From an uncultured Acidobacteriota bacterium (GTDB lineage Bacteria > Acidobacteriota > Blastocatellia > RBC074): 64,000 nt of DNA. Shown in pieces: positions 5,863-47,739 of the stretch (its first letter is position 1; every line of letters starts with the position of its first letter). The stretch covers positions 1 to 64,000 of the forward strand of contig CAWCKY010000004.1 of NCBI GenBank assembly GCA_963796275.1. The letters run 5' to 3'. Made by a program: the position numbers and the translations under genes. Under the pieces are notes generated by a model. It saw only the letters and a list, made by a program, of their open reading frames with translations, searched no databases and was not told the DNA's origin.

Positions 5863-5865
5863 CGT

Positions 5866-7195: not shown

Positions 7196-7199
7196 CGTC

Positions 7200-16361: not shown

Positions 16362-16952
16362 TTATACCGACACCAAGTGCCCTTTGCCCCTTAGGGTTTG
16401 CAGGTCGATGTCTGCGATACATCGTACTTTGACATAGTCCAGGGTAAGCCCGCCTTCCAGATGAACCATTCCCGTTTGGTTCTCAAAATCAGCCTGGCTC
16501 AAATCGAGAGTGTCTCGATCAAGTCTTACTCCTAGTTCGGTGCCGCCCTTGGTCTCAGTAAATTTGATATGGAGATAACCCATATCGATCCGGTCCTTGA
16601 GAGCCGTGGCCGTCTTTTCCGGTCGCAAACTGGCTTCGACCGGATGGTCGCCGTCGCAAAGCTTCTCGACAAGGCTCTTCTCACGAGGTTTGTTCGGATC
16701 AGGCGGTGGAGGAGATGGTGGAGGATTCTTTGCCATCTCCTCCATCTTCTTCCGTAAACTTAACGGCCTCATATCGGTCCATACTTCTTTGATATAGGCC
16801 AGACACTCTGGCTTCAGACCGCTCTTTCCTACCTCTCTCCAACCAAGTGGTATCTCCTTATAGTCCGGCCATATGGAGTATTGTTCTTCGTGATTCATGA
16901 CAACTCTATAAACTGTCGCATCCTCTCTATCAGGATCATGTGAGCTCATCAT
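16362..16952 (-). CDS. mbtH: MbtH-like protein fused via Pro linker to a ~105 aa extra domain
   Basis: [35 protein letters not shown]; GGAGG RBS. Confidence 0.92.
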
Positions 16953-24448: not shown

Positions 24449-24451
24449 GGG

Positions 24452-31300: not shown

Positions 31301-33983
31301 GACTCACTCCTCCCTCTTTGCGCAACGCCTGCTCCACCTCCCCCAGTTCGATCCGATGGCCTCGCAGCTTCACCTGATGGTCCGCTCTCCTCAGATACTC
31401 CAACTCTCCCCCCGCTCTTCTCACCACCAGATCTCCCGTCCGGTACAACCTCTCCCCTTTTTCTCCGAACGGATTCGGCACATACCTCTCTGCCGTTGCA
31501 TCAGGATGCCCCAAATAGCCTCGCCCCAATCCTTTTCCTCCCAAGTACAACTCTCCCTCGCATCCCACACCCGCCAGTATCAGTCCATCTTCCAGTACAT
31601 ACGCCTGCATATTAGAGATCGGAAATCCGATCGCCACGCTTCTCTCTTCCCGCCCTTGTTCTCCTTCCCAAGACATCGCATCTATGCATGTCTCCGTCGG
31701 CCCATACAAATTGATCAACGGCGTTTGCTTCAGCGTCTCCCGGAAACGCCTCCACAGATCGATGCTCAGCTTCTCTCCTCCGCTGTATACCCGCTTCAGC
31801 TCACGGCAGTTTTTCATGCCTTCTTCTTCTATCAGAATTCCCAACATTGTCGGCACCACCTGCAGTACGCTTACCTCTTCCTTCTTGATCGTCTCCACCA
31901 GATACCGCGAATCCTGATGCCCTCCCGGCTCAGCCATGATCAAGACTCCCCCGGATAAAAGCGGCGCATAAAACTCCCAGACCGACGCATCAAAGCTGAA
32001 CGGCGTCTTTTGCAGCACTCGATCATCTGCTTCCAGAGGATATTCTTTTTGCATCCACTCCATGTGGTTCCAGATCGCCCCCTGCGTGATCATCACTCCC
32101 TTCGGCTGCCCCGTCGATCCCGAGGTATAGATCACATACGCCAGGTTCTCCTCCGTTACTTCGATTCCCAGGTTCTCTCCATTTTCCTCCTCCAGCCGCA
32201 CCCAATCCCGATCTACACAGATCACCTCTTCAACCCATTCCGGGACAGAACCCAATAACTTCTCCTGCGTTAGCACCACCCCCACTCCCGCATCCTGCAC
32301 CATGTATCTCAACCGCTCGCTCGGATAGCTCGCATCTAGCGGTAAGTAGGCCCCTCCAGCTTTGAGCACGGCCAGCAGCGCCACCACCAGCTCACACGAT
32401 CTCTCCATCTGAACTCCCACTAGCATCTCCGGCCCCACTCCCAATCGCCGCAGCTGTCGCGCCAGACGGTTCGCTCGCTCGTTCAGCTCTCGATAGGTCA
32501 GACTCCCAGAACCATCCTCGATCGCCCTCTTTTCCCCGCTTCGCTCGACTTGCTCTTCAAACCATTCGTGCAGCACACGGAACCTTCCCCATTCGACTGC
32601 CGTTCGATTCCAATTGATCAGCAATTCTTCGCGTATCCCCGATCCGACCAGTTCCAGCTCTCTCCACTCTTTTTCGGCACTGTTCACTGCGCTCCCGACC
32701 ACGCTCAGATATTGTTCGGCGACTCGCTCGATCACGGCTTTCTCGTATCTCGCCCCTTCATACTGCAGCTCAGCGCGGAGCTCTTTCCCTTGCCTTTCAC
32801 ACCACAGCTTGATTTTGAAATTCCCTTCTTTCATTCGTCTCCCGCATACTCTCCAGACCAAGCCACGGCTTCGTTCCTCATCTTCAGCTCTAACGTACTC
32901 GAATCCGTACTCCAATCCTCTTCGCCACTCCGATTCCTCTCGAATGCTCGCCGCCACTCCTCGGAAGCAGTCTTGCCACGTCCGGTGCTCTTCCAGCCTC
33001 TCGCTCGTTTCATGCACTAGATGGCTCAGACTCGCATTGCTCGCTCCCTCAAATCTCATCGGCAGCCAGCGTTCGAATAATCCAAAAGCTCCTTCCAACT
33101 CGACGTCCGTTCTCCCATCGAACCGCACAACCACTGACTTCAGTCTTCCTCCCGTCAACTTCCACAACAGCACTTGCCAGCAAGCCAGCAGCACTGGTTC
33201 CTCACTCGTTCCCAGGATATCGGAGAGTCTCGCCACACCCGCCGCAAGTTCCTTCCCCAGATTTACTCTCACCGGACTCGATTCCCGCTCACGCTCCCAA
33301 CCTTCTACCTCAAGCGCCAGTCGACCGTTGGCTTCCGCTTCCGTCGATTGGCCTCGCCAATAGGCTCGGCCTTCGGACGCTTCCTCGCTCTCCTCCAGTT
33401 CGCGCTGCCACGCCGCATACGCCGCATATTGCACCACATCTGCTTCAGCCTCTTCCATCTCCTTACATCCTTCACGCAGCCTCTCATACCTCCAGGCCAA
33501 CTCACTCATCAGATTGACCCAGCTCTTGCGATCCACGCTCAATCTTGGCAGGCTGAGCAGCAATCTGGTCTCCTGCCTATCTTGACGCTGCAGACAGGCT
33601 TGTAAGGCTGGTTCGCTGCCGTCCACCGCTCCTTCCTCCATCGTCTCGACCACGCGATCGCCCCACGTCGTATCACCAGTCTCACACGCCTCCCGTTCTT
33701 CTCTCCATCCCAAGGCGCAGGATTCGCTCACCACCTGCCACGGCTGACTCATGCCGGCTGAGAGCCGATACCCGGTCCGCAGAATCTGATGCCTGGCCAC
33801 CGTCTCTTCCAACGCTCTTCGCAGTGCTTCGCTCTCGACCTCACCGGTCAGCACGATCTCGCACAATTCGCGCGGTGTCGGCCCAGCCAGCGCCGACAGT
33901 TCCCTCCACGCTTCCAACTGTTGCTGTGAGATCTGGTAGCCGGTTACCGCCTGCTGTTCTATCAATGTACTTTCATCTCCCAT
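28380..33983 (-). CDS. NRPS: pseudo-C, A(Gln), T, C, fused TauD-type hydroxylase
   Basis: First C PRLSVDR; code read as DAWQYGLIDK; HHIISDG; C-terminal WHNENSF..DNMLSAHGR. Confidence 0.92.
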   Translation of the reverse strand: MGDESTLIEQQAVTGYQISQQQLEAWRELSALAGPTPRELCEIVLTGEVESEALRRALEETVARHQILRTGYRLSAGMSQPWQVVSESCALGWREEREACETGDTTWGDRVVETMEEGAVDGSEPALQACLQRQDRQETRLLLSLPRLSVDRKSWVNLMSELAWRYERLREGCKEMEEAEADVVQYAAYAAWQRELEESEEASEGRAYWRGQSTEAEANGRLALEVEGWERERESSPVRVNLGKELAAGVARLSDILGTSEEPVLLACWQVLLWKLTGGRLKSVVVRFDGRTDVELEGAFGLFERWLPMRFEGASNASLSHLVHETSERLEEHRTWQDCFRGVAASIREESEWRRGLEYGFEYVRAEDEERSRGLVWRVCGRRMKEGNFKIKLWCERQGKELRAELQYEGARYEKAVIERVAEQYLSVVGSAVNSAEKEWRELELVGSGIREELLINWNRTAVEWGRFRVLHEWFEEQVERSGEKRAIEDGSGSLTYRELNERANRLARQLRRLGVGPEMLVGVQMERSCELVVALLAVLKAGGAYLPLDASYPSERLRYMVQDAGVGVVLTQEKLLGSVPEWVEEVICVDRDWVRLEEENGENLGIEVTEENLAYVIYTSGSTGQPKGVMITQGAIWNHMEWMQKEYPLEADDRVLQKTPFSFDASVWEFYAPLLSGGVLIMAEPGGHQDSRYLVETIKKEEVSVLQVVPTMLGILIEEEGMKNCRELKRVYSGGEKLSIDLWRRFRETLKQTPLINLYGPTETCIDAMSWEGEQGREERSVAIGFPISNMQAYVLEDGLILAGVGCEGELYLGGKGLGRGYLGHPDATAERYVPNPFGEKGERLYRTGDLVVRRAGGELEYLRRADHQVKLRGHRIELGEVEQALRKEGGVSQSAALVREGGEEGARLVGYVVYGGTEAPSENELRAKLRRRLPEHMVPSAIIVLDSLPLLPNGKVDLNALVEIGTDRVVTNEVRMTPRTPTEELLCGIWQAVLGINCVGIHDNFFDLGGHSLMATTVIARIHNTFRIEVPLRRLFEHPTVSMLASSIDEDIRAGLALGTPPIVAVPRDRDLPLSFAQQRLWFLDQLSPGSASNNISGGIRLKGALDIVALERSLGEIIKRHESLRTRLVSKRGDPVQVIDGFGPWMLSVEDLSDLSEIEIEENIQQRAAADAGQPFSLSLGPLLRIKLFRLKLDEHMLLITIHHIISDGWSLGVFAQELAALYDAFCEGRPAPLPDLPIQYGDYAVWQRTQLQGEMLERLVEYWKRQLKGAAPVLELSSDRTRPEKQRFRGAVHSMAISKDLTDAMKKLGRDENATLFMTLLAAFNVLLYHYSGQEDLVVGTDIANRNRVETGNLVGFFVNQLALRTDLSGEPTFREILRRVREVALDAYAHQDLPFDKLVEVLKPERSLKYSPIFQVKLVLQNAPMPPLELTNLSLTSFPIKNDVSRFDLTLLFWEKGGGLEGLIEYNTDLFDAAFVMRLSELFERILQFVIEQPHASMAEIERTMVVFEQERLREEASLRADNNLKRFQTAKPELGQLSAEKIVRTSLLRPDFSAPLVIEPRFKDVDLIELGRNNRELIERELGKHGALLFRGFSLPLAGDFERFAKTICPELFSENGEHSRETISGNVYTPVYYPTYLRLLWHNENSFNHQWPRKIWFCCSKPADEGGETPIVDSRKVFESISLTIREKFIRKGVMYVRNYGDNFELDWQKIFQTSSKTEVERRCRADRIDFEWKDGDRLVTRSVRPAVGRHPHTGEMVWFNQAQLWHPYCLDRITRGSLRTLFREENLPRNCYYGDGSVIEDSVMEEILEIYQKLEVSFPWQRWDVLMLDNMLSAHGRTPFTGERKLLVAMGEMSSYSDI

Positions 33984-33984
33984 A

Positions 33985-35067
33985 TCAAATGTCCGTCCTT
34001 TCATATGGTTCGGCCATACCGAAAATGATCTTTCTCTCGCCCCTGAATGACCAGCGTCCGTGCGCGGTCAGCATATTGTCGAGAATGATGACGTCGCCGC
34101 GCTCCCACTCGAAGGCCTTGCTGTTTTCCAGATATGCAGCCCTCAACTCGTCCATGACCGGCGCTTCGATCTCGGATCCGTCCCCGTAGTAGGTATTGTT
34201 GGGCAGATCTTCTACTTTGAACTCCGCGAGCAGAGCATTACGGATCGCAGGTAAGAGCGTCGAAATATGAAAGAATGCCACGTGGTTGAACCAAACCTTT
34301 TCGCCGGTTCGTGGATGCTCAACCACGGCCGGTCGTACCTGGCGAGTGCGCAGACGGTCGCCGTCTCTCCATTCACAATCGATGCCGGCTTGGCGGCAAT
34401 ATCTTTCGACTTCGTCTTTTTCAGTGGTTTGAAAAACCGTCTGCCAGGGCAAGCCAAAGCCATTTCCGAAGTTGCGAACATACATCCATTTCTTTTCGAG
34501 AAAGCGTTCTCTGATCTCCGGAGATATACTCCGGAAAATTTTGCGCGTATCGGCAATCGGCGTCCCCCCTCCCTGCTCGGCCGGAATCAAACAACCGAAG
34601 TAAAGCTTCATCGGCAGAGTTTTGGCATAGGAGTGTTCGTTGTGGGGGAAGATATCTTGCTCCGCGGGATAATCGGTCGAGGTATAGACATTACCGATCA
34701 CGCTGCTGCGAGGAGATGAGCGTTCGCGGTACTCCATCACCTCTCCTGAAATCGCTCGGATCAATTGCTCAAACTCATCCGCCGAATTCATCTGAAAATT
34801 CCGGAGGAGAACGGCGCCACTCCGTCGGCACCAGGTTTCGATGAAGTCCCGGTGGTGCGCGGCCCAGTCAATCAGGCGGACCCCTTCGACGGCAGGCTTA
34901 ACGACCAGCGGGAGTGTGCCGTCGGCATCGAGGTATTCCGTATAAATCAGGCACTCCTCCAGCATGTTGACAGCTTTGGGCTGCGCCATTTTTCCCCGCG
35001 AAGCCCATAAGCTCTGTTTCTCCGGATCCTTCCTTTGTTCAGCACTCATTGCCATCCCTCCCGTCAA
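33985..35067 (-). CDS. Standalone TauD/SyrP-like Fe(II)/2OG beta-hydroxylase
   Basis: PHNEHSY, GGGTPIAD, WFNH, DNMLTAHGR. Confidence 0.9.
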   Translation of the reverse strand: MTGGMAMSAEQRKDPEKQSLWASRGKMAQPKAVNMLEECLIYTEYLDADGTLPLVVKPAVEGVRLIDWAAHHRDFIETWCRRSGAVLLRNFQMNSADEFEQLIRAISGEVMEYRERSSPRSSVIGNVYTSTDYPAEQDIFPHNEHSYAKTLPMKLYFGCLIPAEQGGGTPIADTRKIFRSISPEIRERFLEKKWMYVRNFGNGFGLPWQTVFQTTEKDEVERYCRQAGIDCEWRDGDRLRTRQVRPAVVEHPRTGEKVWFNHVAFFHISTLLPAIRNALLAEFKVEDLPNNTYYGDGSEIEAPVMDELRAAYLENSKAFEWERGDVIILDNMLTAHGRWSFRGERKIIFGMAEPYERTDI

Positions 35068-35172: not shown

Positions 35173-38100
35173 TTATTTATTTTGTTTCGGGACGTCCGCA
35201 ACTCCTTTGAGCATTTTTCGGCGCGCCGCTGCAAATTTACTTCGATTCTGAAGGCGCTCCTGTCGATCATCCTCTTCGAGGGCAACAAAAAGCTCGTCGA
35301 CCATCACGGCTGAGCGCGCAGCGATTATGTGGAGCAGCGTTTTCAACCTGAGCCCGATCCGCTTAATCGTGGATGCGTCGAAAAGCTCCGTGTTGTAACG
35401 GAACTTGCCGATCATTCCGGCTTCAGCCTCTATCATATAAAGGCTCAGATCGAAGACGGACGTACTGTTATCAAATTCCGCAAGTTGCAGTTTCAAATCC
35501 CCGGCTTCCAGGAACTGCGTTTGCGCATTGCGCAAGCCGAACATCACCTGGAAGAGCGGATTACGGCCCAGATCGCGTTCGGGCCGTAACACTTCCACCA
35601 GTTTGTCAAATGGCAAATCCTGGTGGGCATAAGCGCCGAGAGTTGTCTCTTTGACTTGCCTCAACAGGTCGTCAAAATTCTGCCCCTTCCTGATCCGGAC
35701 ACGTAAGACCAGTTGGTTGACGAACAGTCCGATCAAGGCCTCGCTCTCTAGCCGATTCCGGTTTGCGACGTCCGTGCCGATGAGCAGGTCTTCCTCACTT
35801 GACCAATAACTGAGCAGCACCGCAAAAGACGCCAGCAAAGTCATAAACATTGTGGTTTCTTCCCGGCTGCTCAATGTCTTGATCGCTTCCGTCAGACTAT
35901 GGGAAATATCTAGATAGTAGGCTGCCCCCTTGAAAGACTGCACCAGCGGACGTTGCCGATCGGACGGCAATTCCAGTACGAGCGGCGCATCTGCGAGTTG
36001 CTCCTTCCAGTAAGAGAGCTGCCGGTCGAATACAATGCCGTTCATTTGCTCCCTTTCCCACGCCGCGTAATCGGCAAACTGAATTGAAAGTTCAGGGAGG
36101 GGAGAAGGTCGTTCATGCACGAAAGCTTCATAGAGAGTCGCCAGCTCGCGCACGAAGACTCCAATGGACCACCCATCGGAGATGATGTGAGGCAAGGTTA
36201 CCAGCAACATATGCCGTTCGCCCTCTAAGCGCAGCAATCTGAAACGCGCCAACGGCCCTAGTCTCAGATCAACCGGTTTTCTTGCCTCGGCGATTGCTAG
36301 TTGCTCTGCCATCGCTTCTCGTTCGCTCTCAGGCAACCCGCTCAAATCCTCGATCTGTAAAGTAATGTCCAGAGCCTCATTGATAATCTGGACCGGTCTC
36401 CCATCCTTAAAATCAATGGTCGTACGCAAGGCCTCGTGCCGCCGAATGATTTCGCCGAGACTTTGTTCCAATGGACTAAGATCGAGTTGTCCGATCAGAT
36501 GAATGACACCGGACGAGTTGTATGCCGTACTTCCAGGCGCCAGTTGATCCAAAAACCAGAGACGCTGTTGGGCAAAAGAGAGAGACAAATCCTGATTGCG
36601 GTCGATCGGCGGTATGGGCGAGGTAGCATTCCACGCCATTGCGCCAGCAACCTCAATCTCCTTGGCCAATTCGGCCACGACTGGTTTCTCGAAGAAAGTG
36701 GAGAGGGAGACTTCGATTCGGAATCTTTCGCGCAACCGCGAAACTACTTGCGCTGCTAATAGCGAATGCCCGCCCAATTGGAAGAAGTTGTCGTAGACAC
36801 CGACTCGAGACCCCCCGAGGACTTCTGTGAGAATTTCAACCAGCGCCTTCTCCACTGGAGTCCTCGGGGCGACATAATGATCGTCCGATTCAGAGAATGT
36901 TCGCGTCGCAAGAGGCAGCGCGCGCCGGTCTACTTTCCCACTTGGCGTCATCGGCAATTCGTCAAGTCTGACGAAGGTCGAAGGGATCATGTAATCCGGC
37001 AACCTCTGTTTCAGCGCATCCCGCAATTCATCTATAAGTTCTCCTCCCCAAGCCGATTGTCGCGGCACAACATAAGCAACCAGACGCTTATCGCCGCCGG
37101 ATTCCTCGCGAGCAGCAACCACTGCTGCTTTGATTGCCGGGGAGCTGCACAACGCGGTCTCAATCTCGGCAAGTTCGATACGGAACCCCCTGATCTTGAC
37201 TTGATGATCCATGCGCCCGAGAAATTCGATCTGCTCATCCTCTTGAAAACGGGCAATATCACCGGTCCGATAGAAACGCGCACCCGGCTCTAGGCTGAAG
37301 GGATCCGGCACAAACTTCTCCGCTGTCTGCTCGGTATCGTTAAGATATCCCCGCGCTAGCAGCGGCCCCCCAATGCACAGCTCTCCCCGAGTCCCAAGCG
37401 GCTTCAAATTTCCTTGCCGATCTAAAATATAGATGGCCCGCCCGGCAAGTGGGCGTCCTATCGGGACGCGAGTCACGGAGTCCTGTTCGCCATAATGTGG
37501 AGGTACGTCGAAGAGTGTGGAGGTGATCGTCGTCTCCGTCGGCCCATACGCATTTAATAATCTCGACGACCCCATTGCGCTCTGTAGCCACTGTCGCACA
37601 GTGGCTATGGGCATGGCATCTCCGCCAACAATGATCAGCCTGAGCTGCGTTTCCAATCCGTGCGTCTCAGTAAATTCCCGTGTGAGTACAGTCCAATAAG
37701 CCGGTGGCACATTGGCCACAGTGATACCATATCGTTCCACCTGATGATAAAAATCTGTCGTCTCCCACCGCTGCTCGTCGCGCAGCACCAGCGTCGCCCC
37801 GCTGAAGAGCGTTGCCAGTATCTGCTCGATTGAGACATCGAAACTCAGAGAAGCGAACTGGAGCATGCGATCATTCGACTGTAGTGCAAATGACTCTCCG
37901 ATCCGAGCCAGATGGTTGACCGCTGCTTCGTGAGAGATGCATACGCCTTTAGGGCTGCCGGTCGAACCCGATGTGTAAATAACGTATGCCAGATTCATCC
38001 CGGTAATACACGATTCAAGATTAACCGTGGATTCCTGCGCAATCCCTCCCCAATCTGAATCGAGACAAATGATTTCGGAGGCGACAGCAGAGGCTGGGAG

Positions 38101-39813
38101 ATTGAAGATAAGATGCTGTTCGATTAAGAGCACGGATGGGCCAGTGTCTGTAAGCATATAAGACAATCGCTCTTGCGGAGACTTCGGATCGAGCGGCACA
38201 TATACGCCGCCTGCTTTCAGTATTCCAAGTAGTGAGACCACTGTTGCGATAGAACGATTGGCGCAAACACCGACTGTGACTTCGGGTCCGACCCCCAACC
38301 CACGTAAACGATGTGCGAGTTGATTGGCTCGCTCGTTCAAATCACAATAGCTGATCACTTCATCTCCCAACACTATGGCTATCCTCTCAGGAGCGCGATC
38401 GACTTGGGCTTCGAACATCTCAGACAAGGTACATCTCAAAGGCACGGCGGAGCTGATGGCATCACCGACAGCCAGCAATTGACGTTGCTCCTCCTCGGTC
38501 AACAGCGACAGATTGGAAAGGCGCTGTTCAGATCCAGTAATGACGGTCTCGATCAGGGTCTTCAAATATCCGAGCGTCCGGCCCATAGCTTCCCGCTGAA
38601 AAGTAGAGCCGTCATGAGCAAGGCGTAAGACAAATTGGGGTGACTCCGAAACTTCGAGGACGGTGGGGTAGTCATTTTTTATGTCTACGTGATGGCGGCG
38701 AATTGTTATATCTCTGACAAACCATGGCAAAGGTAGAGTGTGCTCATAGTCATTGAAAGCCAGCGCGCTCTCGAACAAACTTTGATCAGGTTCAACATCG
38801 CTCCAGTCTCGGATTTTTGCCAGCGGGATATGCTCAAATCGGTTGGTCTCAATATATTGATCTTGCAGCCGGTTGAGCCATGAAATCACGGTGGCGCCGG
38901 CTGTGATCTCGACTCGAACCGGTACGAAGTTGCTGAACGCACCAACGGCAAGTTCTCCTCCAGGCCACGAAGATGGACGGTCCGACAAGCATATTCCGAA
39001 GACAATCTCCGTTGAATCAATGTAACGACCGAGGAGTAATGCCCATATACCTGAGAGTATAGTCCTTATGCTCAATTGATGGCGTTGCGCGAAAGCTCTG
39101 AGCGCGGCGCAGGTATTTGTAGAAAGCTCAATCTCTTCTTCTTGGTCTCGGCTGTGGTTGCCTGGTAACGGATGTATGCTCAGCGAGTCCGGTGCACGGA
39201 GCGCTGGCAGCGCATCCGTCCAAAACTCTTTAGCATCAGTTAGTTCTTGCCGTTTCAGCCAGGCAAAATAATCTTTGTATATATAAGTGTGCTTCGATTT
39301 GAATTCCCGCGCATCACATATCGCGTCATAGCATGCAAATAGATCCATCAAGATGATCTGTTGCGACCTTCGATCCAGTAACAATCCGTGATAACTCCAG
39401 ACAAAGTAATGTGTCTTTACAGTCATACGAATGAGATGAACGCGGAGCGGCGGCGATCTTCTCAGATCGAACCTGACCTCGCGCTCCGCTGTCAAAAACT
39501 GCTCCATCCGATGTTCCTGTTCACTTGCAGGCAACGTGCTCCAATCGTACCATTCCAGTGGTATCACCACTTCTCGCAGCACGACTTGTAGCGGTTCATT
39601 TAAATTCTCCCAGGAAAACAGGACGCGCAAAGCCTGATGCTGCCGTAGTATTCGCTGCCAGATCTGCTCGAAAGCGGTAACGTTCAAATCACCATCCAGG
39701 AGATAACTGCAGAGCCGCACGGGTAACGAACCAGGAGATTTCAGTTCGCGGCGCAGAATCTCCTGTTGAATAGGCGTAAGCCTATAGATATCTTCGATAT
39801 TCTCTACTTTCAT
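35173..39813 (-). CDS. NRPS: pseudo-C, A(Arg-like), T, C
   Basis: First C YHGLLLDR; code read as DVENIGAITK; GGHSL; second C PHIISDG. Confidence 0.92.
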   Translation of the reverse strand: MKVENIEDIYRLTPIQQEILRRELKSPGSLPVRLCSYLLDGDLNVTAFEQIWQRILRQHQALRVLFSWENLNEPLQVVLREVVIPLEWYDWSTLPASEQEHRMEQFLTAEREVRFDLRRSPPLRVHLIRMTVKTHYFVWSYHGLLLDRRSQQIILMDLFACYDAICDAREFKSKHTYIYKDYFAWLKRQELTDAKEFWTDALPALRAPDSLSIHPLPGNHSRDQEEEIELSTNTCAALRAFAQRHQLSIRTILSGIWALLLGRYIDSTEIVFGICLSDRPSSWPGGELAVGAFSNFVPVRVEITAGATVISWLNRLQDQYIETNRFEHIPLAKIRDWSDVEPDQSLFESALAFNDYEHTLPLPWFVRDITIRRHHVDIKNDYPTVLEVSESPQFVLRLAHDGSTFQREAMGRTLGYLKTLIETVITGSEQRLSNLSLLTEEEQRQLLAVGDAISSAVPLRCTLSEMFEAQVDRAPERIAIVLGDEVISYCDLNERANQLAHRLRGLGVGPEVTVGVCANRSIATVVSLLGILKAGGVYVPLDPKSPQERLSYMLTDTGPSVLLIEQHLIFNLPASAVASEIICLDSDWGGIAQESTVNLESCITGMNLAYVIYTSGSTGSPKGVCISHEAAVNHLARIGESFALQSNDRMLQFASLSFDVSIEQILATLFSGATLVLRDEQRWETTDFYHQVERYGITVANVPPAYWTVLTREFTETHGLETQLRLIIVGGDAMPIATVRQWLQSAMGSSRLLNAYGPTETTITSTLFDVPPHYGEQDSVTRVPIGRPLAGRAIYILDRQGNLKPLGTRGELCIGGPLLARGYLNDTEQTAEKFVPDPFSLEPGARFYRTGDIARFQEDEQIEFLGRMDHQVKIRGFRIELAEIETALCSSPAIKAAVVAAREESGGDKRLVAYVVPRQSAWGGELIDELRDALKQRLPDYMIPSTFVRLDELPMTPSGKVDRRALPLATRTFSESDDHYVAPRTPVEKALVEILTEVLGGSRVGVYDNFFQLGGHSLLAAQVVSRLRERFRIEVSLSTFFEKPVVAELAKEIEVAGAMAWNATSPIPPIDRNQDLSLSFAQQRLWFLDQLAPGSTAYNSSGVIHLIGQLDLSPLEQSLGEIIRRHEALRTTIDFKDGRPVQIINEALDITLQIEDLSGLPESEREAMAEQLAIAEARKPVDLRLGPLARFRLLRLEGERHMLLVTLPHIISDGWSIGVFVRELATLYEAFVHERPSPLPELSIQFADYAAWEREQMNGIVFDRQLSYWKEQLADAPLVLELPSDRQRPLVQSFKGAAYYLDISHSLTEAIKTLSSREETTMFMTLLASFAVLLSYWSSEEDLLIGTDVANRNRLESEALIGLFVNQLVLRVRIRKGQNFDDLLRQVKETTLGAYAHQDLPFDKLVEVLRPERDLGRNPLFQVMFGLRNAQTQFLEAGDLKLQLAEFDNSTSVFDLSLYMIEAEAGMIGKFRYNTELFDASTIKRIGLRLKTLLHIIAARSAVMVDELFVALEEDDRQERLQNRSKFAAARRKMLKGVADVPKQNK

Positions 39814-39875
39814 CTATTATGTTCCTTACCAAGCTATTCAAAGGTGTTTGCTGGAATGGTCGAGGATATACGAAC

Positions 39876-41492
39876 CTATCTTCCGGAAGCATCGGCTTCG
39901 AGGTAAGTGTCGAATCGCCCAAATAGGCGTTGAGCATCTAGGAATCCTGCTTCACGAGCCTTTTGAATCAGTTTATTGGCCTCTTTAATTTGAATAGATT
40001 CTTCTGACAACCCTAATCCCATGCCGTACTGGAACCACGGCTCACTTCCCATGGCATATATATATACCCGCTTTCCGCCGACCGCCTCGAGCAGCGCCCA
40101 TGCAGCTTTTGCGTTGCTGCCTTTCGTCCGTCTACTAATGTCATGATCGTGTTGAATCCTGGATGGGAGTAATGCCCCATAAAGCCATGAAAGCGGCGCG
40201 CCCACACATTCCATCCCCAAAAAAACAGTTTCAATATCGCCGATCGATCGACGAAGATGTTCGTATAGTCGCCGGTCGAGACAATTAGAGTCAGCCGCGA
40301 ATAAAATGCTCTCCTTTCCAATGCGAATGGCATATGCGCTCTTGCCGTGAGGGAGATCGGCATGCTCTCCTAAAAACGGGACGGCGATGATTTCACCATT
40401 TGGCAGCTCAATCGACTCCAGAGAATCCAACTCGATCACATTTTTAAATCCTATCTGATAGGCCAGCAGTTTCAGCGAAGGATCCGTGTAGAACAGGCTG
40501 AAGTTCTTTGGTACAACCAGGCAGTCGATGCGATGCCGCAAGCGAAGCAGCGTTTCAGGAACAAAGTGATCATGATGGGCGTGTGTAATGAGCGCGAAGT
40601 CAATCTTCTTTGGCAACTCTCGATAGGTGATACGCTCTAATCCGCCGTCTCGAGGCATAACCCCAACCCAGGGATCGGTCATGATAGAGATTCCATTCCA
40701 TTCGACCAAGACACAGGCATGTCCCAGATACCTGATGCGGAGCTTCGGTTCTCGCCACGGTTCAAGTGGCATATTGTGCTCTGACGATAAAAACGGCAGA
40801 AGCGCCTCTTCCTGCCGCTGACCGAGCTCCAGCACTTCGCGAATATGACCCAGAGGTCGCGGCGAGAGCTCAATCCTGAAGAGTTCATCTATCTCCGGGC
40901 TTTCGAATGATACTCGCCAGTCGATTTCATCTTCGTTGAGTAAATGCGGCGTGCTCAGGAAAAAGGGCCGCGAATTATCTCGCTGAACCATAAAAAAACG
41001 CAGTGACTGGAGTATTCTGTTATAGTAAGGGCTTGCGTAAAGCAACCCTTCCATCAGACGTAGAATCGGGTGATTGTAGTAATCGTAGACTAACTCTGTG
41101 TAACCGCGAAGACACTCAGATAATCTCTCATAAAAAGGCTCGAGGCTTTGCCCCTTCGCTTCGTGCGCCAGGCACTCATAAGCTTCGGTGATAGCCTTTG
41201 CCAATTCGAGGTTAGAATACTGGCGTTGCATTGAGCCGAGTAATGCCCGAACCTCATCTGCGCGCTCCAATGGCGCGTCAACAAAAGGTCCACCAACTAG
41301 CCTCGGGTTTTGGCAGGCCTTGATGTGGATCTCTGGATTTTCCATGTAAGACGAGAGAGTCTTGATCTGATAATGCCTCAGATGCATGCTGTAGGGAGCC
41401 GGGGCAATCAAATCCGACCACACGGCCCATTGATTAATTAACGGCTCGACCACAGTTGAATCCGCAAGACGATATGTTGTTTGGGATGACAC
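39876..41492 (-). CDS. CmlA-like diiron MBL-fold beta-hydroxylase 2
   Basis: EPLINQW, GGPF, THAHHDH, FLGEHADL, AADS; GTG start after GGAGG. Confidence 0.85.
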   Translation of the reverse strand: MSSQTTYRLADSTVVEPLINQWAVWSDLIAPAPYSMHLRHYQIKTLSSYMENPEIHIKACQNPRLVGGPFVDAPLERADEVRALLGSMQRQYSNLELAKAITEAYECLAHEAKGQSLEPFYERLSECLRGYTELVYDYYNHPILRLMEGLLYASPYYNRILQSLRFFMVQRDNSRPFFLSTPHLLNEDEIDWRVSFESPEIDELFRIELSPRPLGHIREVLELGQRQEEALLPFLSSEHNMPLEPWREPKLRIRYLGHACVLVEWNGISIMTDPWVGVMPRDGGLERITYRELPKKIDFALITHAHHDHFVPETLLRLRHRIDCLVVPKNFSLFYTDPSLKLLAYQIGFKNVIELDSLESIELPNGEIIAVPFLGEHADLPHGKSAYAIRIGKESILFAADSNCLDRRLYEHLRRSIGDIETVFLGMECVGAPLSWLYGALLPSRIQHDHDISRRTKGSNAKAAWALLEAVGGKRVYIYAMGSEPWFQYGMGLGLSEESIQIKEANKLIQKAREAGFLDAQRLFGRFDTYLEADASGR

Positions 41493-41623
41493 TTCTCCTC
41501 CTCTACCGCATTTCTTTGCTGTTAACAACTAGATGTATTAACGCCTCGATAATGGTTTCTCTAATAGGCTTCGCAATAGGCTCTTGCGCAGAGAGAAGGC
41601 GGACCAAGAGATGGGGTTGGCGA

Positions 41624-43216
41624 TCAATGCGCATAAAGAATTTCCTTCTGCCCGAAGAGTCTCTCAGCTTTAATCCCCTTGCTGGCACAGCTTTTCAACA
41701 ACATGTTCGAGGAAACTATTTGCTTAGATTGCTCCGTGTATTTGAGGCTCATTATGTATGTCAACCATGGTTCCTGCCCCATAGCATAGACATATACCTC
41801 CTCACAGCCTAGTTGATTTACTATTCCCATAGCCTGGTCGTAGTCTGAGCCGGATAGCTTTCTGGAGTGGTCCATCTTCCTGTCTACGGGCCTGGTTATC
41901 AGCGGTCCATACAACCATGTTAAAGGCGCGCCATCGCATTCCATGCCTAGGAAGAGCACATCGACTCTTCCCATCAGTGAAAATATGTGCGCGTACAGTT
42001 TGGGCTCGATATTTGCTGAATCCGCGGCAAACATAAATGATTTGCCATTGAGATTGATCAGGTGTGCGATCTTACTGTTGATGCTCAAATCTGCATGCTC
42101 GCCTAAAAAGGGTATACCGGTTATCGTTCCTCCAGTAATATCAATAACCTCCAGCGGTTCGATCTCCCTAACATCCTTGAATCCGACATTTTGAAAGACC
42201 AGCTTGAGGGAGGGGTCCTGGAGAGAGCCACCTCCACTTCTGGGCAATATGACCGTCTTAACCTTATGCTTCAACTGCAACAATGATTCCAACATAATGT
42301 GGTCTTGATGCCCGTGCGTGATTAGTACGTAGTCTACAACCTCCGGCAGGTCGCGGAACGTAAAGCGTGGGATACCATTGTCGTAGGCGTAGCTGAGCAA
42401 TGGATCGATAAGTATGAAGACGTTCTTAGTCTCTACAGAGATACAAGCATGGCCGTAATACCGCAGTCTGACGCCATCGTTAGTGTAGCGCGAGCGTTCC
42501 GGCGGAGCTTCTTCGGTTAAGAACGTTTGAAACAGAGTCATATCTTCTGGTTGTAGTTTCAGTAGCTCGTTAATGTAGCCGATCGGTTGGGGATAGCTTC
42601 TCATCTTAAATAATTCATCAATAGCACGGTGAGCGAAAGGTATTTGCAATAGCAATGACCCGGGATTCGGCAGTCTTGGCGTGCTCAGCGCGAAGCCGCG
42701 GTAATCATCGTTGATAAGCGATAAGGATAGACTCTGCGACGAGGGATTATAATACTTACTCTTGTAGAGCAGCCCTTCTATGAATTTGATGGACGGGTTG
42801 TCATTCAGGTCGTATACCAACTCGACGTATCCCTTCAGGCATTCGGGGACCTGCAGATACAAAGGTTCAATGCAATAGCCATTCGCCTGAGACCTCAAAA
42901 GGGAGTCAACGGCCCGGGTCGAATCGGCAAAATCGATCATGTGGCTATGTTCTTTGAGCGTCTTATTCAGCAGGGCTTCTATCTCATTGACTCGTTCGCC
43001 TTGGTAGTCAATGAACGGGCCGCCAAGCAATGCCGGGCTCTTGACCGCTTTGGCATGAACTTGAGGTGCGGAAATGTAGGACTTCATTATTTTGATATGC
43101 TGATTGGCGATATTCATCGCCGCCGCCGCGGGGGCGATTAAATGGGACCATGCATACCACTGGTTGAATAATGGTTCCATCAGAACATTTTGCTTTAGGT
43201 AATGCCTTGTTGCCAT
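41624..43216 (-). CDS. CmlA-like diiron MBL-fold beta-hydroxylase 1
   Basis: EPLFNQWYAW, LLGGPF, THGHQDH, FLGEHADL, YAMGQEPW. Confidence 0.88.
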   Translation of the reverse strand: MATRHYLKQNVLMEPLFNQWYAWSHLIAPAAAAMNIANQHIKIMKSYISAPQVHAKAVKSPALLGGPFIDYQGERVNEIEALLNKTLKEHSHMIDFADSTRAVDSLLRSQANGYCIEPLYLQVPECLKGYVELVYDLNDNPSIKFIEGLLYKSKYYNPSSQSLSLSLINDDYRGFALSTPRLPNPGSLLLQIPFAHRAIDELFKMRSYPQPIGYINELLKLQPEDMTLFQTFLTEEAPPERSRYTNDGVRLRYYGHACISVETKNVFILIDPLLSYAYDNGIPRFTFRDLPEVVDYVLITHGHQDHIMLESLLQLKHKVKTVILPRSGGGSLQDPSLKLVFQNVGFKDVREIEPLEVIDITGGTITGIPFLGEHADLSINSKIAHLINLNGKSFMFAADSANIEPKLYAHIFSLMGRVDVLFLGMECDGAPLTWLYGPLITRPVDRKMDHSRKLSGSDYDQAMGIVNQLGCEEVYVYAMGQEPWLTYIMSLKYTEQSKQIVSSNMLLKSCASKGIKAERLFGQKEILYAH

Positions 43217-43412: not shown

Positions 43413-46400
43413 TCACTGTCGCCCAAGACCGGACAAATTACTGATGAGATTTTCAAAATCCCTTTGGCTTAATTCCGCCTCGGGGAAATCGCTAACGGCG
43501 AGGCCTCCGCTTTCAGTTCCAGTCAAGAGTTGGAGGGCTGATAAAAGTTGATCAGGATTGTTGACTATGCTCTCCAACAATCGCTGGTATTTCCCGGTCA
43601 TCCCAGCAATCGTCTCTCGCTCAAAGAGATTGACGTTATACTTGAACGAACAACTCAATCCTTCTTCGATCTCTTCCATGGTCAGGATTAGTTCGAATTC
43701 TGCCGTTTCGTTGTCTATCGGAAGCAAGCTGACCTCAAGTTCTCCAAGCTTCAATGATGGTATCGGCGCGTTTTGTAACACGCACAAAATCTGGATAAAC
43801 GGCGTCTGAGTCAATCCCCGCTCGGGATGCAAAGCTTCGACAACCTTTCCAAATGGGACATGCTGATGAGCAATTGCGTCAATCGTGATCTCCCTAACAC
43901 GTCCAAGCAATTCACGGAAGCTCGGGTCGCCTGATAAATCAATACGCAACGGTAACAAATTGACGAAAAAGCCGATCAGGCCTTCTGTCTCAGAAAGATT
44001 GCGGTTTGCGACGTCGGTGCCGACGATAAGGTCTTCTTGTCCGGTATAACGATAGAGGAGTGTTTGGAATGCCGCGAGCAACGTCATAAACAATGTCGCC
44101 CCTTCTCGCTGACTCAAATCCTTGAGACCCTCAGTTATAGCAATCGGCAATACAAACCGTTCGCACGCTCCCTGGATGCCCATTTTGCCGTGATGCGCTC
44201 GGTCGAACGGAAGTTTCGTTACCAAAGGAGCCCCGGCCAACTGGCGCTGCCAGTAAGCAAGTTGCGATTCCAACACCTCCCCCTGGAGCCAATCGCGCTG
44301 CCAGACGGAATAGTCGCCATACTGGATCGCCAATTCCGGCAATGGCGAAGGCATCTTAGATGAGAAGGCTTCATATAACGTCGCCAATTCATGGACCAAC
44401 ACGCCCATCGACCACCCGTCGCAAGCAATATGGTGAATCGTTATAACCAACACATGCTCTTCTTCATCGAGCCGTAATAACCGCGCCCTCATCAGTGGAC
44501 CATTGGATAAATCGAAAGGTTGTCTGACCTCTATCGTCGTTTGTTGTAAAGCAACCGACATGCGGTTGGTTTCCAGTTCTATATTCAGGTTGATTATATG
44601 TAGGTTCACCGGCGTTGCTTTCCCGACCACCTGAACCGGTCGTCCGGCCAATGATGTATATGTGGTTCGCAAAGATTCGTGACGCCTCACGATCTCATTG
44701 AGCGTCAGCTGCAACGCATCCATGTTCAGCCTTCCCCTAATGAGAAGTGCTCCAGGCAGGTTATAGGCGATATTGCCCGGCTCCAGTTGTTCAATGAACC
44801 AGAGGCGTTCCTGAGCGAATGAAAGCGGCAGATCTGGACCACGCTCCGCCGGCTTTATCGGAGGAACCTGCGTTTGCCTCGTGCTCTTTACTCGATCAAT
44901 ACACTCTGACAGGCTGGCGATGGTCGGATGCTCAAACAGTTGGCGGAACATCAGGTCTATCCCAAGAATGTCGCGCAGATGCGAGATCAGCCTCGAGGCG
45001 AGTAACGAATCCCCGCCGAGGGAAAAAAAGTTATCATGCCTACCGATACTCTCCACACCCAGTACTTTAGTCCATAACACTGTCAGCGATCTCTCGGAAG
45101 GGCTGATCGCCAGGCCACGGTTAGTGATCCGGGATCGAGTCCGCTCACCTCTGCTTATGCTACTTGACAATATTTCCAAGAGATCTACTTTTCGAATAAC
45201 ATCCAGACTACCATTCAGAAACCTCTCCATTGTTGCGCGCCGTTGTATCTTCCCGCTGGATGTCTTGCTAATCGAGCCCGGTTTAATCAGGACAACCTGG
45301 TGCACTTGTATCTCGTGCTCTTCCGCGATTGCCTCATATATTCTCCACACAATCTCATCATCATCCAGATTCCGGATTGCAGATCGCTCCAGCTCCTGTA
45401 CGATTACTAGTTGCTCCTCTCCATCCACTTCAATTGTGAACGCAGTTCCGCATCCCGCTCTGAGCGCCGGATCACTTCGTTCCGCCGTCAACTCAATATC
45501 CTGCGGATGATGATTTCGCCCTCGAATGATGATCAAATCCTTCAAACGGCCAATAATGTAAAGGTTCTCCTCCAAGGTGAATCCCAGATCACCCGTTCGA
45601 AGGAATCGCGTCTTGTCCCATCCAGTCAGTCGTGCGTTGAACGTTCGTTCTGTCTCCTCAGGGCGATCCCAATATCCATGGGCAACGCTCGGACCTGACA
45701 GCCAGATTTCGCCGACTTGTCCCTCCTGGCATTCGATTAAAGATTGGGGGTCTGCAATGACGAGTCTCTGTCCGCCATAGACCTTTCCGCAACTAACTAG
45801 GGTCCTGGTTCCTATGTCGTTTTGTGAGGCGAGAACAACTCGATTGTCTTCAAGGGCTGACTTCTGAACCTGACAAATGACGGGGCCGGAACTCGGTCGT
45901 GATGCGGTCACCGCCAGCGTTGCTTCGGCAAGTCCATACCCTGAAAACAATCCCTCGCGACGGAATCCGCACTCTTCGAAAGCTTTTGCAAACCGCTCTA
46001 ACGTATCATAACGAATTGGTTCGGAACCGTTGAAGGCCACTTTCCAACTACTCAGGTCCAGCTTCGCTCGTTCTTTCCGAGTGATCCTGTGAACACAAAG
46101 ATCATAAGCGAAATTCGGGCCGCCGCTAATCGTGGCCTGGTAGCGATTGATGGCCTGCAGCCAACGGACGGGGCGCTGGAGAAAGGCCGCCGGTGACATA
46201 AAGACGCAAGAAGCACCGCTATAAACCGCCTGCAGCGCGTTACCAATGAGTCCCATATCGTGATAAAGCGGCAGCCAACAGACGATCACACTCTGCTCCG
46301 AGACTTCATATGCCTCTTGTAACACTCCCTCATTGTGAAGCAGGTTTCCGTGACTCACCATGACACCCTTTGGCACAGAGGTCGACCCGGATGTGTACTG

Positions 46401-46940
46401 AAGGAAAGCCAGATCACCGCTCGTAAGTTGTGGGCGCGTCCACCGCTCGGTCCATTTAGATCGAGGATCATTAATGATGGTATCTGTGGCCAGCCATAGG
46501 GGTGGCTTCAAGCCCGGAGAGCGTTCGAAGTGTCGCTCGAAACCCGACAAGACTTGAGCTGTGGTCAATGTAGCCATTGCCTCAGTATCTGTGATAATTG
46601 CTTGCAGTCGCGTCAAGTTTCGATTGTGCCGAGGTGGGTACGCCGGAACGGCCACTGCTCCCGCATACAAACAACCGAAGAATGTACTCAGATAATCCAA
46701 TCCTGGAGGATAGAATAGAAGGATGCGCTGTCCGGAAGCTCCCATAGACTGTAGCCAGGCGCCAAGCGCCCGCGCTTGTTGATCCAGTTCCCGGTAAGTC
46801 AGGCACCCGTTTTCTTCTTCTCCTTCAATCAGGAACCTATAGGCAATTCTCTCCGGTTGATGCTCCGCCCTGCGCTGCAGAAGCTCCACCAGTGTCGCCG
46901 CGTTGAATGGCGAGCAATTAACGTCGGTCGAATATTTCAT
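43413..46940 (-). CDS. Lipoinitiation protein FAAL-ACP-C
   Basis: AFLQYTSGST, WLPLYHDMGLIG, GYGLAEATL, ACP GGDSLL, C HHIACDG. Confidence 0.92.
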   Translation of the reverse strand: MKYSTDVNCSPFNAATLVELLQRRAEHQPERIAYRFLIEGEEENGCLTYRELDQQARALGAWLQSMGASGQRILLFYPPGLDYLSTFFGCLYAGAVAVPAYPPRHNRNLTRLQAIITDTEAMATLTTAQVLSGFERHFERSPGLKPPLWLATDTIINDPRSKWTERWTRPQLTSGDLAFLQYTSGSTSVPKGVMVSHGNLLHNEGVLQEAYEVSEQSVIVCWLPLYHDMGLIGNALQAVYSGASCVFMSPAAFLQRPVRWLQAINRYQATISGGPNFAYDLCVHRITRKERAKLDLSSWKVAFNGSEPIRYDTLERFAKAFEECGFRREGLFSGYGLAEATLAVTASRPSSGPVICQVQKSALEDNRVVLASQNDIGTRTLVSCGKVYGGQRLVIADPQSLIECQEGQVGEIWLSGPSVAHGYWDRPEETERTFNARLTGWDKTRFLRTGDLGFTLEENLYIIGRLKDLIIIRGRNHHPQDIELTAERSDPALRAGCGTAFTIEVDGEEQLVIVQELERSAIRNLDDDEIVWRIYEAIAEEHEIQVHQVVLIKPGSISKTSSGKIQRRATMERFLNGSLDVIRKVDLLEILSSSISRGERTRSRITNRGLAISPSERSLTVLWTKVLGVESIGRHDNFFSLGGDSLLASRLISHLRDILGIDLMFRQLFEHPTIASLSECIDRVKSTRQTQVPPIKPAERGPDLPLSFAQERLWFIEQLEPGNIAYNLPGALLIRGRLNMDALQLTLNEIVRRHESLRTTYTSLAGRPVQVVGKATPVNLHIINLNIELETNRMSVALQQTTIEVRQPFDLSNGPLMRARLLRLDEEEHVLVITIHHIACDGWSMGVLVHELATLYEAFSSKMPSPLPELAIQYGDYSVWQRDWLQGEVLESQLAYWQRQLAGAPLVTKLPFDRAHHGKMGIQGACERFVLPIAITEGLKDLSQREGATLFMTLLAAFQTLLYRYTGQEDLIVGTDVANRNLSETEGLIGFFVNLLPLRIDLSGDPSFRELLGRVREITIDAIAHQHVPFGKVVEALHPERGLTQTPFIQILCVLQNAPIPSLKLGELEVSLLPIDNETAEFELILTMEEIEEGLSCSFKYNVNLFERETIAGMTGKYQRLLESIVNNPDQLLSALQLLTGTESGGLAVSDFPEAELSQRDFENLISNLSGLGRQ

Positions 46941-46950: not shown

Positions 46951-47739
46951 TTAGACCTGCGCTTCCCGTAGGTTGATGAGGTTTAAGGTTAAACTCATGC
47001 ACGTCAGTCCGGCCTCAGCTTTCTCAAATTCTGAAATGTCGAGTATAGCTACTTGGAAGCCACGTTGTTCCACCAACGCGCGCGTTTGCGGATAACCGGA
47101 GGGAAGCAGCACGATTTTTCCTACAGACAGGGTATTAGCCGCCCATGGCTCCGTGGCAGGCACCTCTATGATCTCTGCCCATTCAAACGGACGAGCATCA
47201 ATCCACGAGCGGTTAAGAAGCACTGTGTTACGGCCCAGGTATGAACACCCTGTTGATAAATGTAAGCACCCATTTACTCTGACAGATCGTACATCGTAAC
47301 CATAGGGCGCCAAGATCATTCGCAACTGTGCAATCCCTTCTGTATTAGTACGACTTGATTCGCCGAGATAGAGGGTGCGGCCGATCCGTATCACATCGCC
47401 GCCTTCCAATGTCGCTGGCGGCTCGAGATATTTCAGAGGGCGGTGCCTCGCCAATACAGGAACTAAGCTATTGATTTCATCTCGCCTCCGCGAAGCCCCC
47501 ATTCGGGCAATGACAGCAAGTTCATCGACCACAACTGCGGTGTCTTCAATGAAAACGGCGTCTGGCAATGCTGGCTCTGGTGGGAGAGAAATTACCTTAA
47601 CTCCATTCTGTTTCAAGAACAGTTCATACGATTGATGTTGTCGAATGGCCTTGGAAATGTCTATCTGGACGCGGTTCAAATAGGTCAATTCACAGTTCCC
47701 GATACTGTGACTGACTTGGCGCGTAAACGCGGTCGGCAT
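46951..47739 (-). CDS. DDAH-like amidinotransferase-superfamily hydrolase
   Basis: DAVFIEDTAVV, LEGGDV, LHL, C-terminal GLTCMS. Confidence 0.85.
   Translation of the reverse strand: MPTAFTRQVSHSIGNCELTYLNRVQIDISKAIRQHQSYELFLKQNGVKVISLPPEPALPDAVFIEDTAVVVDELAVIARMGASRRRDEINSLVPVLARHRPLKYLEPPATLEGGDVIRIGRTLYLGESSRTNTEGIAQLRMILAPYGYDVRSVRVNGCLHLSTGCSYLGRNTVLLNRSWIDARPFEWAEIIEVPATEPWAANTLSVGKIVLLPSGYPQTRALVEQRGFQVAILDISEFEKAEAGLTCMSLTLNLINLREAQV

Follow-up and report, generated by a model that had tools for sequence, protein, structure and literature searches.

Two CmlA-type diiron hydroxylases beside a non-catalytic, DCL-like condensation domain in a lipopentapeptide synthetase cluster of an uncultured Acidobacteriota bacterium

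The first 64,000 nucleotides of contig CAWCKY010000004.1 (GenBank assembly GCA_963796275.1; Acidobacteriota, Blastocatellia, RBC074), hereafter the window, carry a lipopentapeptide nonribosomal peptide synthetase (NRPS) cluster built of three repeats of one unit, comprising a condensation (C) domain, one or more hydroxylases, a non-catalytic C-like domain, an adenylation (A) domain, and a thiolation (T) domain. The repeats read (i) C, then MBL1 and MBL2, then dead C-A-T; (ii) C, then TauD, then I-A-T; and (iii) C-TauD, then I-A-T; the two TauD units, whose modules are Gln-like and Asn-like, carry canonical interface (I) domains, whereas the first unit holds two CmlA-type enzymes of the metallo-β-lactamase (MBL) fold instead. 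We favour, with moderate confidence, a reading in which MBL2 is the in-line hydroxylase of the basic-like residue of module 1, the dead domain is its maintained, I-like partner of independent origin, and MBL1 is an added enzyme. The original prediction for this region covered positions 38500-43216, which take in the two MBL genes and all but a small part of the dead domain (38449-39813), and had placed the pair between a protein composed of fatty acyl-AMP ligase, acyl carrier protein, and C domain (FAAL-ACP-C) and an NRPS module with a pseudo-C start, an arrangement on which Pfam and the alignments agree. The features concerned are as follows:

41624..43216, minus strand: MBL1 (P0001, 530 aa), CmlA-type diiron hydroxylase assigned to a trans-acting subfamily by Pfam and by subfamily and context comparison
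39876..41492, minus strand: MBL2 (P0242, 538 aa), CmlA-type diiron hydroxylase assigned to an in-line subfamily by the same means
35173..39813, minus strand: NRPS1 (1546 aa; Pfam)
38449..39813, minus strand: dead C-like domain, DCL-derived by alignment and C-domain tree, residues 1-455 of NRPS1, motif HGLLLDR
35173..38448, minus strand: remainder of NRPS1, comprising A (code DVENIGAITK), T, and C (PHIISDG), from Pfam, alignment, and code extraction

MBL1 and MBL2 belong to the CmlA family as judged by (i) a CmlA_N domain (PF18456) at positions 1-231/232, with E values of 6e-94 and 4.4e-78, respectively, which exclude chance as the source of the assignment; (ii) a full-length MBL fold, matched by Lactamase_B_2 and Lactamase_B_3; and (iii) the ligand set, with HxHxDH (THGHQDH, THAHHDH) and GEHADL present in both. 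The ligand motifs named in the original prediction are borne out, H316, H318, D320, H321, E388, and D413 (P0002, that is MBL2, numbering) being invariant in an alignment of eight sequences of both types and aligning with HxHxDH, GEH, and AADS of CmlA (PDB code, 4JO0). We take the ligands of CmlA itself to be H305, H307, D309, H310, E377, and D403, comprising three His, two Asp, and one Glu. The accessible text of the hypeptin paper points to the functional importance of E377 through an analogue, E375D. The best solved match to both proteins is PDB code 8A90 (E 7e-140 for MBL1 and 2.6e-106 for MBL2), whose name, 'non-heme diiron monooxygenase', is the depositor's only and whose identity with FrsH is not established, and CmlA aligns at full length (E 1.3e-117 and 2.5e-89), both structures covering about 520 residues. 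The open reading frame of MBL2 extends to a TTG at 41528 (39876-41528, 550 aa); the start is most likely the GTG at 41492, since it lies behind GGAGG and gives the 538-aa form in agreement with the database entry P0242. MBL2 deviates at two of 177 subfamily-conserved columns (median 4) and MBL1 at 14 of 225 (median 6, 90th percentile 11, maximum 21), and both enzymes look functional by their conserved ligands and columns, the divergence of MBL1 fitting either altered specificity or relaxed constraint. The genome of origin (9.46 Mb in seven contigs) holds no CmlA_N match besides these two.

The two proteins had been described as divergent paralogs, which holds as far as divergence goes (40% identity, 210/524), but not as a local duplication: a recent tandem duplication is rejected because, at this identity, each protein is closer to outside sequences than to the other. 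Comparison with their relatives, in which one genome per species was scanned, the best 80 loci of 609 relatives were retained, and typing relied on tblastn, separates two old subfamilies with different gene syntax, including (i) MBL2-type genes at 20 of the 80 loci (L001-L020), 48-65% identical to P0002 and 35-41% to P0001, and (ii) MBL1-type genes at the other 60 (L021-L080), 45-66% identical to P0001 and 39-47% to P0002. Genes of the MBL2 subfamily lie immediately upstream of an NRPS gene whose first module has the matching A domain; at 17 of the 20 loci the next gene is an NRPS whose first two domains are a C-type domain and A; in L004 it begins 1.6 kb beyond the hydroxylase gene. That opening domain is a full C domain at ten loci (L001, L002, L003, L007, L013, L014, L015, L017, L018, and L019), with HHxxxD intact in all nine that are whole, the one in L019 being cut by the contig end, and a C-lobe only (about residues 195-450) at seven (L004, L005, L006, L008, L009, L010, and L016); the remaining loci comprise two contigs that end too early and one with a C-A gene upstream. 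The C-lobe-only modules start with about 260 aa devoid of the HHxxxDG region, another example lying directly after an MBL2-type gene at G717:C2:26580-30539, and the A domain behind such a start is Tyr-like where readable, Pro-like in L004, and cut in L016.

On the other hand, MBL1-type genes stand before free A-T proteins with aliphatic-type codes (DAFFFGVTFK, DALWLGGTFK, DAFWLGGTFK, and similar), after a thioesterase (TE), or beside ATP-binding cassette (ABC) transporter and M28-family peptidase genes, with M28 homologs in L040, L047, and genome G717; a C-starting NRPS directly downstream occurs only in L048 and L068.

NRPS1 opens with MKVENIEDIYRLTPIQQ and a full-length C-like domain in which HGLLLDR stands in place of HHxxxDG, the second His being replaced by Gly and the Gly by Arg. 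The second His is lost in three N-terminal domains of the cluster (HGLLLDR in NRPS1, PRLSVDR in NRPS2, and PTLCADA in NRPS3); FAAL-ACP-C, NRPS2, and NRPS5 each have a C domain with the motif intact, and the C domain divided over NRPS3 and NRPS4 has LHAISDG at this site. The TauD-linked pseudo-C domains, with the motifs PRLSVDR and PTLCADA, open ..GYQISQQQ and ..GFRLSSLQ. A tree of 53 C-type domains (IQ-TREE, SH-aLRT supports) joins eight TauD-linked I domains, the window's two included, in one clade (support 100), and pairs the NRPS1 dead domain (W_I_N1) with P0127 (100), next to the intact DCL-like domain that follows the MBL2-type gene of L002 (95), these three being nested in a DCL-like clade of 22 rows (98). 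Two relatives in that clade, L004_13217_1380 and L042_3600_1594, directly follow epimerization (E)-like domains (HHLxVDG). When the NRPS1 pair is constrained to lie within the I clade, the tree loses 78.45 log-likelihood units (p-AU 0.0045), a test weakened by the group having been named after the tree was seen; a quick version of the tree flagged a long branch for W_I_N2. Descent of the dead domain from DCL-type domains, with an origin independent of the TauD-linked I clade, is thereby supported, in keeping with the DCL-like character and separate origin that had been proposed for it.

The dead domain is DCL-type in its sequence relationship to C domains located after E domains; an intact HHxxxDG and an upstream donor module are missing, the upstream FAAL-ACP-C protein ending in its own intact C domain. 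It resembles I domains in having a C fold without the second His and a position between the working C and hydroxylase genes and A-T, but it falls outside the I clade and faces no TauD-type (Fe/α-ketoglutarate, α-KG) partner, and for these two reasons it is not to be filed as an I domain.

Database searching with the NRPS1 domain gave P0127 (1552 aa, 57% identity overall) as its best relative; this protein has HGLLMDE, the same code DVENIGAITK, and the altered N-terminal motif of NRPS1, QQEIL instead of QQGMLFH. Compared domain by domain, the two share 45% in the dead C, 65% in A, 59% in T, and 62% in the C-terminal C domain. The dead domain is full-length in both, with only a 6-residue gap, and the loss of the catalytic His in P0127 as well, at 45% identity, indicates that the domain is maintained. 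Among the listed relatives that start with the same domain type, the second His is intact except in P0196 (SSLLIDD) and the start module of G717 (PGILFDRRS). The latter is a dead DCL-like start domain that opens an NRPS (G717:C2:52061-53998, L086), with DRRS in common with HGLLLDRRS of the window. A metagenome scan with the two dead-domain orthologs returned four loci, each encoding a DCL-like protein (31-34% identity) that stands free within a TauD/I cluster, and in the protein search with the dead domain the best 150 of 70465 matches are megasynthases, ranked by their summed C domains. At the other end of NRPS1 (window 35173-36600), the C-terminal C domain reads PHIISDG, the first His being replaced by Pro and the catalytic second His retained; the counterpart in P0127 reads HHIISDG.

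The A-domain codes, extracted by anchoring on the A4, A5, and A10 motifs, read in module order DVENIGAITK, DAWQYGLIDK, DLTKVGEVGK, DLFNNALTYK, and DILQLGVIWK, the last four being presumably Gln-, Asn-, Ala-, and Gly-like. The code of module 1 carries an acidic residue (Glu) at position 239 and is not aromatic, and we take an acidic residue at 239 to be a feature of basic-residue codes; the residue of module 1 is thus probably basic (Arg, Lys, or Orn type), which agrees with the basic-type code originally read here, and a gene resembling dimethylargininase (DDAH) in the same operon faintly hints towards an Arg-derived residue. DVENIGAITK directly follows an MBL2-type gene in four other genomes (L001, L002, L013, and L014), and L001 and L002 also hold the closest MBL2 relatives (64-65%) among the best 80 loci. 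The subfamily is not bound to one substrate, given that further MBL2-type genes stand before Tyr-like codes (DASTIAAVCK and variants), Thr-like codes, and codes of other kinds.

A link between MBL2-type hydroxylases and C-type domains is also seen within single proteins. Three of the 120 MBL2 homologs listed (P0355, P0359, and P0360; 804-850 aa) are fusions of the hydroxylase with a C-lobe-only Condensation domain, and their common acidic C-terminal tail, ..[DE]D[QE]F.F, makes them look like complete proteins; L010:216-3416 encodes an MBL2-type hydroxylase and a full C domain in one protein of 1067 aa. Condensation (PF00668) is found in none of the 120 MBL1 homologs listed, the searches with both proteins having covered lengths of 0.55-1.75 times the query. 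P0245, an MBL2 ortholog of 76% identity, is recorded on a contig that matches that of P0127 in length (24884) and in sources. Genome G717 repeats the arrangement DCL, MBL2, C-lobe-A (Tyr-like) and has an MBL1 gene after the TE; this cluster combines one MBL2-type and one MBL1-type gene with two C-lobe-A (Tyr-like) modules, so the presence of both types in one pathway is not unique to the window.

In the mechanism that we propose, MBL2 would hydroxylate the T-bound residue of module 1, most likely at the β carbon, either ahead of N-acylation by the FAAL-ACP-C condensation domain or coupled with it. As the upstream protein supplies a working C domain, the dead domain would now serve as a scaffold or interface beside the hydroxylase, that is, as an I-like domain of independent origin. 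MBL1 would have been recruited in addition and, to judge by its position, would most likely have that same carrier-bound residue as its target, either for a second oxidation or as a partner subunit. The Gln-like and Asn-like modules own a TauD enzyme and an I domain each and the remaining modules are Ala-like and Gly-like, so position and exclusion point MBL1 at residue 1, the acyl chain being a less likely target.

Several observations weigh against this proposal. (i) The interplay of MBL2 with the dead domain, both binding and activity, is deduced from sequence and gene context, and a complex prediction for the dead domain (1-455) with MBL2, run with alignments, scored 0.00 and gave no answer, its controls not having been folded, so that it speaks neither for nor against binding. 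(ii) The intact domains downstream of nine MBL2-type genes, out of ten full C domains among 20 loci, mean that a dead C domain is not required by enzymes of this type. (iii) The dead domain is more diverged than the rest of NRPS1 (45% against 59-65%), which fits relaxed constraint as readily as a changed role, and the dead start domain of G717 has a MacB/FtsX-type transporter gene upstream and no hydroxylase gene directly upstream. (iv) The placement of P0245 and P0127 on one contig is inferred only. (v) MBL1 lies in the top decile of its subfamily for divergence, and its deviations, mostly conservative, include N378S and N401A near ligand residues. (vi) Genome G621, of the same genus as the window genome, has no MBL2 ortholog, the best match being 51%, so the cluster is not shared within the genus sample. 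(vii) The mapping of the codes onto GrsA positions is one that we assume. (viii) For the code DVENIGAITK or its variants no relevant paper was found, the single match concerning an unrelated code. (ix) The accessible text on myxoglucamide describes its I domain (in MxgB) as dispensable in vitro, so an I-like position is no proof of recruitment. As to G621 itself (87% complete), it holds ten matches to MBL2 and six to CmlA_N on different contigs.

A tentative possibility is that the shuffling of cassettes left the dead C domain behind as no more than a relic, retained because the A domain depends on this neighbour to fold or to dock onto the protein upstream, with MBL1 redundant or left over from a merger of two cluster types. 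The nearest relative of the dead pair is the intact DCL domain after the MBL2-type gene of L002, which suggests that a cassette of MBL2 and DCL-A-T-C was placed behind FAAL-ACP-C, and M28, ABC, FAAL, and MBL1 genes co-occur in L040 and L047 without MBL2. The faster evolution of the dead domain relative to the rest of NRPS1, the dead G717 start PGILFDRRS with no hydroxylase gene directly before it, the divergence of MBL1 beyond 90% of its subfamily, and a gene GC content of 0.45-0.58 inside the cluster against 0.57-0.59 in the flanking (upstream regulatory) genes lend this explanation further weight. It accounts poorly, however, for a His lost in both orthologs at 45% identity while the full length is kept with a 6-residue gap, for the fusions of hydroxylase and C-lobe, which suggest that the connection of MBL2-type enzymes with C-like parts lacking catalysis is a real, physical one, and for an MBL1 that retains all ligands and an open frame.

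Doubtful, in our view, is the idea that the dead DCL-like domain is a convergent docking site at which both diiron enzymes act on one Arg-type residue, sequentially or as a heterodimer. In its favour, both MBL genes occupy a single gap where each other unit holds one TauD enzyme, both keep their ligands, the dead domain is of independent origin, the operon includes the DDAH-like gene, and CmlA is said to dimerise through its N-terminal domain. In L040 an MBL1-type gene stands beside a basic-like code, DVEDLGGITK-TE, together with ABC and M28 genes, its A domain being 52% identical to A1 and the closest in that genome; the genomes behind L040, L047, L048, L063, and L076 contain no A domain above 52% identity to A1. 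Against it, MBL2 occurs without MBL1 at DVENIGAITK in the four other loci, and no MBL1 homolog of at least 60% identity is recorded on a contig of the length given for P0127 (24884) among the matches listed; furthermore, Arg is only one candidate among the basic residues. Direct tandems were likewise not seen elsewhere: 3 of 400 other genomes of the phylum carry CmlA_N, with one match each, and none of the 36 positives among 400 other genomes of the class has two matches within 2 kb, although four of them (G621, G717, G549, and G564) have two matches 16-42 kb apart on one contig; since many assemblies are fragmented, this absence applies to the genomes searched only. A second, non-adjacent copy lies nearby in one of the 80 loci, L053, where two MBL1-type genes (3-1574 and 5707-7344) stand about 4 kb apart on opposite strands of a contig from an alphaproteobacterial metagenome-assembled genome. 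P0034 and P0268, each recorded on an 'ena' contig with a length of 3451 nt, may form a further tandem.

A broader proposal, which we regard as unlikely in its full extent, is that non-catalytic C-type pieces before A-T, comprising the dead DCL-like domain, the C-lobe-only domains, and the C-lobes fused to the hydroxylase, may form a second interface class for in-line diiron β-hydroxylases, independent of the TauD-linked class and here serving two diiron enzymes, with a basic residue oxidised twice or a heterodimer at work.

Quite improbable, finally, is that MBL2 alone serves module 1 and MBL1 acts elsewhere, on the Gln-like or Asn-like residue again or on the fatty acyl chain on ACP. In its favour, MBL1-type genes are mostly non-collinear with their target and often accompany aliphatic codes on free A-T proteins, MBL1 comes directly after the FAAL-ACP-C gene, and one diiron enzyme can serve two modules (Tyr and Leu), as the accessible text on HynC describes. 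Against it, the Gln-like and Asn-like modules already have their own TauD enzyme and I domain, the remaining codes are Ala-like and Gly-like, and the literature as far as accessible describes no member of the CmlA family whose substrate is an acyl chain devoid of an α-amine.

Compared to known systems, the arrangement combines familiar parts in a different manner. The X domain of glycopeptide NRPSs is a catalytically dead C-type domain that recruits P450 Oxy enzymes to the carrier-bound substrate; as so described, it differs from the window domain in lying in the last module before the TE, in its P450 partner, and in its cross-linking chemistry. To our knowledge, no C-like domain is carried by the NRPS partner of CmlA. 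CmlA/CmlP of chloramphenicol biosynthesis share with the window the CmlA_N domain and MBL fold, the conserved ligand positions, and, according to the accessible accounts, a carrier-bound amino acid as the substrate of CmlA, but involve one enzyme and an aromatic substrate, in contrast to two subfamilies, a dead C domain before A-T, and a non-aromatic code. The accessible parts of the literature describe characterised members of the CmlA family as acting on carrier-bound p-aminophenylalanine, Tyr, and Leu; the family had been described as best known for aromatic residues, and 'aromatic only' would be too narrow, since Leu is among the known substrates. FrsH (FR900359) is there described as hydroxylating Leu-S-T before N-acylation by the starter C domain, and HynC (hypeptin) as one diiron enzyme serving two modules, in a cluster with one diiron and one α-KG enzyme; both differ from the window in that a single diiron enzyme acts in trans for one or several modules, with no pseudo-C partner described in the accessible text. 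The diiron oxygenase of lyngbyapeptin was set aside as a comparison because it belongs to another fold family.

I domains are reported with TauD-type β-hydroxylases (Reitz et al. 2019 as cited; MxgB; glidomide GlmF), and in myxoglucamide biosynthesis, on the accessible accounts, FAAL-ACP-C-Ox and I-A-PCP couple hydroxylation and condensation. Such TauD-linked I domains, two true examples of which lie inside the window cluster, share with the dead domain the C fold, the lack of the second His, and a place between a functional C domain and A-T, with a hydroxylase in the gap; the dead domain differs in lying outside the I clade, in its DCL-derived origin, and in facing diiron instead of α-KG enzymes. 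No paper joining interface or inactive C domains with diiron hydroxylases was found, in a search thin on subscription papers.

NRPS engineering still lacks an answer to how trans-acting tailoring enzymes choose their carrier domain, as the hypeptin and FR900359 papers put it in their accessible parts. Interface domains have so far been tied to α-KG dioxygenases, and the window cluster places both hydroxylase classes in one architectural slot. Together with the fusions of hydroxylase and C-lobe, it offers a testable case for a general rule in which C, hydroxylase, and pseudo-C-A-T follow one another, as well as a sequence signature from which the module served by a diiron hydroxylase could be predicted. 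The product would be an uncharacterised, heavily hydroxylated lipopentapeptide, and the nearest relatives of the proteins place its producer among acidobacteria of the Blastocatellia/Pyrinomonadaceae kind.

The remaining genes of the cluster, all on the minus strand and reading from high to low coordinates, comprise:

52597..53169, minus strand: NusG/UpxY-like antiterminator at the cluster head (Pfam NusG; NCBIfam UpxY, 103 bits against a cut-off of 100)
50063..52417, minus strand: M28-family peptidase, 784 aa (Pfam Peptidase_M28, E 1.6e-49)
47848..49560, minus strand: ABC exporter (NCBIfam cyclic peptide export ABC transporter, 501 bits against a cut-off of 286)
46951..47739, minus strand: DDAH (dimethylargininase)-like guanidino-group-modifying enzyme (Pfam ADI/DDAH; NCBIfam dimethylargininase, E 4e-59)
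43413..46940, minus strand: FAAL-ACP-C lipoinitiation protein, AMP-binding (FAAL-like)-PP-Condensation, C domain intact with HHIACDG (Pfam and C-domain alignment)
33985..35067, minus strand: TauD-type dioxygenase as a stand-alone protein, its gene sharing 20 nt with the start of NRPS2 (Pfam)
28380..34004, minus strand: NRPS2, 1874 aa, comprising I (PRLSVDR), A (DAWQYGLIDK, presumably Gln-like), T, C, and a fused TauD domain
24452..28162, minus strand: NRPS3, comprising I (PTLCADA), A (DLTKVGEVGK, presumably Asn-like), T, and the N-lobe of a C domain, ending at an in-frame TAA
21704..24448, minus strand: NRPS4, comprising the C-lobe of the C domain begun in NRPS3, A (DLFNNALTYK, presumably Ala-like), and T
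17624..21661, minus strand: NRPS5, comprising C, A (DILQLGVIWK, presumably Gly-like), T, and TE
16362..16952, minus strand: MbtH-like protein

Spacers in the biosynthetic core range from -20 to 217 nt. The DDAH-like protein reaches 200 bits against the NCBIfam dimethylargininase models, below the 340-bit cut-off, and its gene ends 10 nt upstream of the FAAL gene; the C domain of FAAL-ACP-C groups with LCL-type domains in the tree. A promoter and terminator scan of 39700-43500 found no terminator-like site in the spacers from MBL1 through MBL2 to NRPS1, two terminator-like sites in the spacer between FAAL and MBL1, and fewer promoter-like sites than in shuffled sequence. NusG-like genes also occur near MBL1-type genes in L029, L062, L067, and L074, the window gene being a UpxY/RfaH-like NusG paralog.

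The LHAISDG C domain is divided between NRPS3 and NRPS4 by an in-frame TAA (24452-24454, minus strand) near the boundary of its N- and C-lobes, and a GTG 3 nt past it in the same frame (..ALLHH* P V PDQTPPMMSFRDY..; window 24446-24454, minus strand) opens NRPS4; the TAA may stem from a nonsense mutation or from an error in sequencing, or it may mark a genuinely split domain. If the domain is split, NRPS4 resembles the C-lobe-A-T modules of other loci. Downstream of the cluster, positions 1-11000 of the window hold a polysaccharide-type region with GT4 glycosyltransferases, an ABC-2 permease, and a Wzt-like ABC ATPase fused to an FkbM methyltransferase, seemingly unrelated to the hydroxylases.

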